Shown piece by piece: positions 12,144 through 13,867 of a DNA stretch of 64,000 nt. This DNA is from Candidatus Thorarchaeota archaeon (lineage in GTDB: Archaea; Asgardarchaeota; Thorarchaeia; Thorarchaeales; Thorarchaeaceae), in NCBI GenBank assembly GCA_963726195.1, contig CAVSBO010000010.1:56139-120138 (forward strand), written 5' to 3'. Under the pieces are notes generated by a model, which worked only from the letters and a program-made list of their open reading frames with translations, was not told the origin of the DNA and ran no database searches. Position numbers and translations under genes: made by a program. How positions within the stretch are numbered: the first letter of the stretch is position 1; each line of letters begins with the position of its first letter.

Positions 12144-12243
12144 GCCGAGGTATCCAAGCGGTTACGGAGACGGTCTCGAAATCATAGCCAACAAGGCAAC
12201 CGTTGGGGTCATCCCCGCGAGGGTTCGAATCCCTTCCTCGGCG
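12144..12243 (+). tRNA. tRNA-Ser(CGA) with a 17-nt intron at 37/38 (12181-12197)
   Basis: Acceptor GCCGAGG/CCTCGGC, anticodon stem ACGGT/ACCGT, CGA anticodon, long variable arm GGGG/CCCC, GGTTCGAATCC T arm. Confidence 0.9.
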
Positions 12244-12334: not shown

Positions 12335-12422
12335 TGGTGCGGAGGGCGAGATTTGAACTCGCGAATCTCTACAGAACGAGGTCCTAAGCCTCGCGCCTTT
12401 GACCTAGCTTGGCAACCTCCGC
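12335..12422 (-). tRNA. tRNA-Leu(TAG), CCA encoded
   Basis: GCGGAGG acceptor, CGAGG-CT-TAG-GA-CCTCG anticodon arm, long variable arm, GTTCAAATC, ends ACCA. Confidence 0.95.
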
Positions 12423-12734: not shown

Positions 12735-12799
12735 AATAATATCCTCGCTGAGAAGCTGGTCGCATTCGGATATTTAGTTTGCTCCCAGCCTTGGCTTGG

Positions 12800-12952
12800 A
12801 CTTGTGCTAGGGCATTGAGTCAACTACCCGCGACTAAAGTCGCAGGCTTGCCACTGCAATCCGTGGTAGGAACTCTACCTCATCATTTCGCGCGACGTTC
12901 GGGCGGTTGACTTTCGCCCTCCCGACCACAGCATTGCCACGGTCGGATACGA
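12800..12952 (-). ncRNA. Putative TnpB omegaRNA scaffold plus flank-derived guide
   Basis: TTTAAA box at 12975-12980. Hairpins CCGACC/GGTCGG, GGGCG/CGCCC and GGTAG/CTACC plus the RE hairpin. Loop GTCAAC is complementary to the terminal GTTGAC (pseudoknot). Ends approximate. Confidence 0.6.
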
Positions 12953-13047
12953 TCCTTCACTTTTCAAGCTCTCATTTAAACTCGTATATCCCGCGGCGGC
13001 GTTTCCTCCCCCGACTAAAGTTGCGGGTCTCCTCGCCGCGTTTCTCT
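12819..13047 (-). mobile_element. Non-autonomous IS200/IS605-family mini-element (no ORF)
   Basis: Related subterminal palindromes at both ends (CCCGCAACTTTAGTCGGGG at the LE, CCTGCGACTTTAGTCGCGGG at the RE). RE terminus GGTAGTTGAC. LE preceded by TTCAT. No target-site duplication. Confidence 0.8.
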
Positions 13048-13183
13048 ATGAAGGAAACGTGCAACACATGTCACAACCTTTTTATTAGCACCGTAAGATA
13101 ACGGCGGGAACCGTGGCGCTACCACGGCGTGGGTCGAGATTCTTCGGACCAACTCAGGTATTTCACCAAGAGTGTGATGTGAC

Positions 13184-13867
13184 ATGTCCTCGCAGACCAA
13201 GGAAGTAGCTGCCACTACCGCAAGAGCAAGAGACAAGTGGAGAGAGAAAGCTTGGTATCAGGTTCTGGCACCAGAGTACTTTGGCAACAAGGAAATCGGC
13301 GTCACGCCCGGGGAGACTCCCGACTCGCTGGTTGGTCGCACCTTGGAACCCACACTCTACGATATTACTGGTAACTTCGACCAGATTCACGTTAAGCTTC
13401 GGTTCAAGATAACAGGTGTTGTGGGGCAGCAGGCCAAGACTGTCTTCTTTGGCCATGAATGGAGCTCAGATTATTTGCGTGGGCTCGTTAGAAGAGGCAC
13501 ATCGAGAATAGATTGGATTGGGCCGATACTCACGAAAGACGACTACATGATGCGGATTTCCGTGATTGTTTTCACTATGACTCGCTCAAAGACCAGTCAG
13601 GAGCACTCTGTGAGAAAGGCTATCGAGAAGGTCATAGTCGGACACGCAAAGAGGCATACATTCGACGAGCTTGTCCAGAAGGTAATTCTTGGAGACCTTG
13701 CCAAGGAAGTCCAGGACGAAGTCAAGAAAATCACGCCCATCCGGGAGTGTGAAATTCGGAAGAGCAAGGTACTGAAGGCGCCTGAGGAAGTGAGAGCCAG
13801 AAGGGCAAGACTTCGCAGAGGCGGTCCGAAGGCCGAGGCTACAGAGACACCTGAGGCGTCAAGCTGA
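13184..13867 (+). CDS. rps3ae: Ribosomal protein eS1 (S3Ae)
   Basis: RDKWREKAWYQVLAP...LVGRTLE...DYLRGLVRRGTSRID...EIRKSKVL. Confidence 0.96.
   Translation: MSSQTKEVAATTARARDKWREKAWYQVLAPEYFGNKEIGVTPGETPDSLVGRTLEPTLYDITGNFDQIHVKLRFKITGVVGQQAKTVFFGHEWSSDYLRGLVRRGTSRIDWIGPILTKDDYMMRISVIVFTMTRSKTSQEHSVRKAIEKVIVGHAKRHTFDELVQKVILGDLAKEVQDEVKKITPIRECEIRKSKVLKAPEEVRARRARLRRGGPKAEATETPEASS

Follow-up and report, generated by a model that had tools for sequence, protein, structure and literature searches.

What is the short segment without a gene that lies in the gap between two divergent genes of a Thorarchaeota archaeon, upstream of both, and is it a mobile element that carries an omegaRNA and borrows its proteins? 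The segment (the mini-element) was found in the window, the whole stretch of 64,000 nucleotides that was analyzed, which is part of contig C10 in an archaeal assembly of 2.92 Mb (88.9% complete). A first-pass annotation, prepared from the letters of the window, had described a target motif, a left end with a palindrome, a TTTAAA box, four hairpins, and a right end, and all of these features were present on the minus strand where it had placed them (Table 1). The size of the segment, 229 bp, was exact, set by the divergence of the flanks in 11 copies and by the joint of an empty site, which skips these 229 bp (see below). There was no gene within: about 40 codons of the former tnpB frame remained uninterrupted, with no start codon among them. 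The complementarity between a GTCAAC loop and the terminal GTTGAC also held (12911-12906 and 12824-12819, respectively). Subterminal palindromes were found at both ends, the left hairpin being imperfect in this copy, without terminal inverted repeats. Therefore, a canonical MITE, which has terminal inverted repeats and target duplication, was ruled out; the element had neither. An Rfam search with the mini-element gave no matching family.

Table 1. Features of the mini-element and its neighborhood in the window
Feature	Position	Strand	Comment
Whole mini-element	12819-13047	-	229 bp, gene-less
Target motif TTCAT	13048-13052	-	Target of TnpA, and TAM predicted for TnpB; belongs to the host DNA, not to the element
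Left end	12981-13047	-	DNA guide GAGA (13031-13028), imperfect subterminal hairpin (13027-13008), outer stem
Archaeal TATA-like box TTTAAA	12975-12980	-	Putative promoter
Box-to-scaffold linker, 24 nt	12951-12974	-	Probable relic of a tnpB 5'-region (sister lineage); contains the deletion junction
omegaRNA scaffold, 132 nt, ends GTTGAC	12819-12950	-	Corresponds to the 3' end of four tnpB elements
Scaffold hairpin 1	12947-12921	-	
Scaffold hairpin 2	12919-12901	-	
Scaffold branched stem	12896-12850	-	
Right-end hairpin of scaffold	12847-12826	-	
Pseudoknot loop GTCAAC	12906-12911	-	Complementary to the terminal GTTGAC (12824-12819)
Predicted guide from the flank	12799-12818	-	First 16-20 nt past the right end; by analogy with characterized TnpB omegaRNAs
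S3Ae-like ribosomal protein gene	13184-13867	+	Neighbor of the mini-element; identified from sequence
Segment upstream of the S3Ae-like gene	13090-13183	+	Partly conserved across the genus; fold no better than shuffles (z = +0.69)
Zinc-ribbon ORF, 55 codons	12567-12734	-	Neighbor of the mini-element; conserved in three congeners, 85 nt downstream of the mini-element on the same strand
tRNA, CGA, Ser-like	12144-12243	+	Apparent anticodon-loop intron (Rfam only; ARAGORN misses it)
tRNA-Leu(TAG)	12335-12422	-	

The first-pass annotation had also predicted that further copies, and a cognate tnpB with the same ends, would lie elsewhere in the genome, and both were found. BLAST analysis revealed six other gene-less copies (227-231 bp; 90-95% identity), seven in total, together with four full-length elements of 1271-1275 bp that have the same ends and scaffold and encode tnpB alone. 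Between the mini-element and these long elements, the left end was 77-84% identical and the last 132-140 bp 91-94% identical. A covariance model of the scaffold (R1) matched exactly these 11 places in the genome. The genome scan for right ends was too strict, recovering 3 of the 11 known ends, and other short derivatives may have escaped it. Beyond this genome, the element was absent from the relatives covered by a DNA search of 60, a metagenome pattern scan returned one full-length element and nothing more, and the element was not found in viral contigs and phage records.

The four cognate TnpB proteins (about 385-400 amino acids; one is encoded at C16:97498-98691) were 86-89% identical to each other, with intact RuvC residues (D175, E254, and D340) and a zinc finger, and the one tested against the NCBIfam model guided_TnpB scored above the cut-off. 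Named relatives came from Thorarchaeota, Hodarchaeales, Sigynarchaeota, and other Asgard groups. Since the scaffolds of the mini-elements and of the cognate elements were 86-97% identical, we infer that a compatible and catalytically intact-looking TnpB is encoded in the same genome as the mini-elements. The two tnpB genes of the window, tentatively of the IS607 type, are not this partner, as had been supposed: both were only distantly related to the cognate proteins, one with 24-28% identity and the other with a match confined to a short C-terminal stretch.

Several observations were made on related elements in other genomes. In another Asgard genome, a leucine-rich-repeat gene has at its 3' end a 5'-truncated copy of the cognate tnpB family (L013:2990-3417), which consists of the last 130 codons and the right end without a left end. 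L074 (G058:C1:1803037-1803186) and L065 (G025:C338:5349-5486) are candidate gene-less IS605 derivatives with different scaffolds, which end in TTTAC; in the case of L065, a second end-like hairpin comes immediately afterwards.

The predicted target motif TTCAT directly preceded 8 of the 11 family members (TCAT in 9 of 11), with CTCAT, TTGAT, and TTCAC before the three others, and insertion occurred 3' of TTCAT without target duplication. The empty site that had been predicted was also found. In metagenome run X4, one contig links position 12818 to 13048, skipping exactly 229 bp and retaining TTCAT, with flanks of about 90% identity and no shared letters at the joint; the same run carries the filled allele. 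This joint is a single contig of 151 nt at a depth of 2.5, and independent support came from three congeners: the orthologous region of G002 aligned without gaps to the reconstructed empty allele, and the element was absent at the site in G001 and G003 as well. Contigs from runs X1-X3 exit the element at 12818/12819 and 13052 into different flanks, indicating that the family has further insertion sites. The flanks differed in all 11 copies, and the filled allele at this site was common to strains whose flanking sequences differ by a few per cent. The mini-element has moved, occupying seven sites in this genome and more in related populations. We take GAGA 5' of the left hairpin and CAAG 5' of the right hairpin to fit TCAT and TGAC, respectively, under the DNA-guide rule of IS608. 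The DNA-guide principle for IS605-type ends is described in PMC10055086.

These properties are those of PATEs, which were reported from Haloquadratum walsbyi as elements with IS605/IS1341-related ends that are too short for a transposase (Dyall-Smith et al. 2011, PMC3119063). The mini-element has the PATE features that were tested: palindromes, no gene, insertion 3' of a motif, and ends shared with a coding element. As in H. walsbyi, the palindromes are near-terminal, terminal inverted repeats and target duplication are lacking, and the copies form a homogeneous family (>90% identity) with strain-specific insertions (PMC3119063). On the other hand, the host here is an Asgard archaeon, that report predates omegaRNAs, and the part retained in the mini-element proved to be a full covarying scaffold, with a putative promoter box at transcript-start distance.

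The 132-nt scaffold folded into the proposed stems (z = -3.26; none of 200 shuffles was as good). The opposite (+) strand also folded better than shuffles (z = -3.07), at -46.5 kcal/mol vs -54.5 kcal/mol for the scaffold. The first-pass annotation had expected covariation among copies, and in 19 scaffolds (11 from this genome and 8 from relatives) the hairpins and the terminal pseudoknot did covary: 95.6% of cells were paired, 19 of 46 pairs had changed on both sides, and pairing fell to 29-50% in a control in which the partners were slid by 1-3 columns. For the pseudoknot, 99.1% of cells were paired and two pairs had changed on both sides, one such change occurring within this genome (the long element on C5). 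RNAalifold recovered hairpins 1 and 2. These values are to be read with the facts that related sequences inflate the shuffle control, that the two-sided changes came mostly from tnpB-coding relatives, and that the right-end hairpin is under constraint as DNA too.

The TTTAAA box was invariant in 7/7 mini-elements, and the scaffold begins 25 nt past it. The box lies at body position 68; long elements have TTTAAG there, before tnpB. The linker is found, in this genome, in the mini-elements alone and is absent from the four long elements, and by eye it resembles the spacing of box, GTGAAG, and start codon in the sister elements L019, L024, and L079, in which the start codon lies 23 nt after TTTAAA. 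The part retained in a mini-element exceeds the right-end hairpin by about 100 nt and ends some 7 nt short of the first stem region of the scaffold. The mini-elements clustered on both the left-end and scaffold trees, with weak support (81/81 for the scaffold branch); this and a single junction common to all of them suggest that they likely have one origin. We therefore propose that one internal deletion took out tnpB, beginning at about the start codon and ending a few bases short of the scaffold, and would thereby have put the old tnpB promoter box 25 nt upstream of the scaffold, so that a transcript from the old promoter would start almost at the scaffold 5' edge. When host ORFs were used to calibrate the TATA-to-start distance, no clear peak emerged. 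Read-through from the mini-element could affect the zinc-ribbon ORF downstream.

Taken together, the mini-element is best explained as a non-autonomous IS200/IS605 (IS1341-type) derivative, namely, an omegaRNA-bearing PATE that uses TnpB in trans, to which we assign a probability of roughly 70%. Its RNA of about 150 nt would consist of the scaffold and a guide from the flank, with little or no 5' trimming needed. Cognate TnpB from the full-length elements would bind this RNA and cut the empty junction of TTCAT and guide left after excision by TnpA, and homologous repair from an element-bearing copy would restore the mini-element. Such cutting of the empty junction after excision, followed by recombinational restoration, has been demonstrated for Geobacillus elements (PMC10055086).

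The most serious alternative is that the mini-element moves, or once moved, passively as DNA via its two ends, the scaffold being a passenger unused as a guide and conserved by recent origin and by gene conversion with tnpB-coding copies. The pattern of divergence among the seven mini-elements bears on this point. Divergence was 4.9% in the scaffold, as compared with 12% in the left end and 17% in the linker, and there were no indels in the scaffold and five gap columns elsewhere in the mini-element. Stem-breaking changes in the scaffolds numbered 2, against 5.4 expected (P about 0.015). Of 13 scaffold variants, however, 11 fell where the old tnpB frame has its third codon positions (P about 2e-4; scaffold positions 4-103), including all five private ones, and six were also present in coding copies. 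Structure-neutral transitions were unenriched at the third codon position (27/73), and secondary structure therefore does not account for the bias. Conservation together with this codon-position signature could have its source in partial gene conversion from tnpB-coding copies, and the scaffolds may be conserved in part by exchange with coding elements, not by selection on the RNA of the mini-elements. The absence of a positive correlation between left-end and scaffold distances among the mini-elements, like the codon-position bias and the shared alleles, favors a passenger scaffold. Wholesale replacement of scaffolds found no support, the mini-elements forming one side of a weakly supported branch (81/81).

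Other features argue against a passenger. The deletion junction lies almost exactly at the scaffold 5' edge, at promoter distance; the TATA box is invariant while the adjacent linker drifts; the mini-elements cluster, weakly (81/81), on the scaffold tree; and an unrelated gene-less family in another Asgard family keeps a scaffold too. The latter family (L082 at G217:C14:379474-379919, L083, L084, and L087) is from one genus and measures 414-426 bp in three measured copies. It has TTCAT, a left-end hairpin, and a TTTAAA box; the omegaRNA scaffold, which is shortened, follows the box after about 125 nt, and an extra conserved hairpin lies in this interval. The family shows that the gene-less architecture recurs. 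On balance, a purely passive element appears unlikely.

A tentative extension of the omegaRNA-bearing PATE, which we consider rather doubtful, is that the mini-elements are second-order parasites, in which the deletion joined the tnpB promoter to the mature 5' end of the omegaRNA. The resulting guide would be independent of processing and would compete for TnpB with the four elements that encode it, gene conversion from tnpB-coding copies keeping the scaffolds compatible, perhaps in a genome that has lost TnpA. If true, gene conversion would explain a codon-position signature in non-coding DNA.

The proteins to be borrowed were located in part. The first-pass annotation held that both TnpA and TnpB are supplied in trans; the cognate tnpB elements are in the genome, as described above, and TnpA was not found in the assembly. 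Searches with Pfam Y1_Tnp, tblastn, and a custom HMM gave no convincing Y1 TnpA in the 88.9%-complete assembly (best E 0.018-0.026), and the whole genome (G000) showed 35 matches to the TnpB C-terminal Pfam family and none to the Y1 transposase. Weak tblastn hits of TnpA on the mini-elements arose from the left end, because this end overlaps the tnpA C-terminus in an autonomous relative. This relative (L080; 690-2375) has divergent tnpA and tnpB genes, is preceded by TTCAT, and has a left end closely similar to that of the mini-element; its TnpB is 81% identical to the cognate protein, and the autonomous element was found in two other metagenome assemblies (L080 and L081). The tnpA of L080 lies on the opposite strand from tnpB, and its C-terminal codons cross the left-end hairpin. 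A Y1 TnpA would have to act, or have acted, in trans.

A further question is what the guides would recognize. Host domestication, in which the mini-elements are kept as guide cassettes aiming TnpB at viruses or host genes, would be in line with an excess of mini-elements over tnpB copies (seven vs four), with their location, in all cases, between long ORFs or at the edges of such ORFs, and with the sharing of the filled allele among strains that have diverged by a few per cent in the flanking sequence. The guides, however, are arbitrary flanks, and those of the 11 copies found no TCAT-adjacent target in their own genome beyond 9 matched bases. For this copy, 17-nt matches of TAM and guide were found in two viral sequences; they extended no further than 12-13 guide bases, and their frequency was about that expected by chance. 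The lack of a target above chance in both sets fits the empty junction as the sole target. The site is also empty in all three congeners and in one related strain, and TnpB is mobile with intact catalytic residues. These results made domestication very improbable.

The omegaRNA-bearing PATE adopted here is a further case of a described architecture, that of protein-free IS605 derivatives with omegaRNAs (PMC10055086 and PMC10691335). According to Meers et al. 2023 (PMC10055086), omegaRNAs are often encoded by PATEs and depend on TnpB supplied in trans. The closest counterparts described there, PATE-like elements of Geobacillus stearothermophilus, are likewise protein-free IS200/IS605 elements beside tnpB-only elements with the same ends, and likewise have TAM/TEM motifs with DNA guides. 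The G. stearothermophilus genome has a TnpA gene, whereas none was found in the Thorarchaeota assembly, and the direct fusion of promoter to scaffold proposed for the mini-element is not described for the G. stearothermophilus elements in the passages of PMC10055086 consulted.

In comparison with mRNA-processed omegaRNAs, the transcript of the mini-element would start at about the mature 5' end, without upstream mRNA. The standalone omegaRNA demonstrated to work in trans is reportedly that of an IscB. Compared with that case, the mini-element is archaeal and carries a predicted TnpB scaffold. More generally, standalone mobilized omegaRNAs of OMEGA systems act in trans (Altae-Tran et al. 2023, PMC10691335), and the mini-elements resemble them as effector-less mobile loci with effector loci in the same genome. 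TnpB trims its omegaRNA from its own mRNA (Nety et al. 2023, PMC10278001); known TnpB omegaRNAs range from 79 to 466 nt, the AmaTnpB scaffold having 106 nt, and part of the upstream mRNA inhibits cleavage by AmaTnpB (PMC10278001). As with these omegaRNAs, the scaffold studied here overlaps the tnpB 3' end, and its 132 nt are within the size range. A literature search that included few subscription papers gave no report of such elements in Asgard archaea or of a promoter-to-scaffold fusion.

Although knowledge of PATE and TnpB systems is otherwise unchanged, this family points to the probable minimal scaffold and TAM of an uncharacterized Asgard TnpB clade. It also offers natural material for testing a proposal that has been stated but seldom tested, namely, that PATEs without a protein of their own persist by borrowing TnpB. 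All parts are defined: the ends, TTCAT, the 132-nt scaffold, four intact nucleases, the TnpA of a close autonomous relative, and the empty site.
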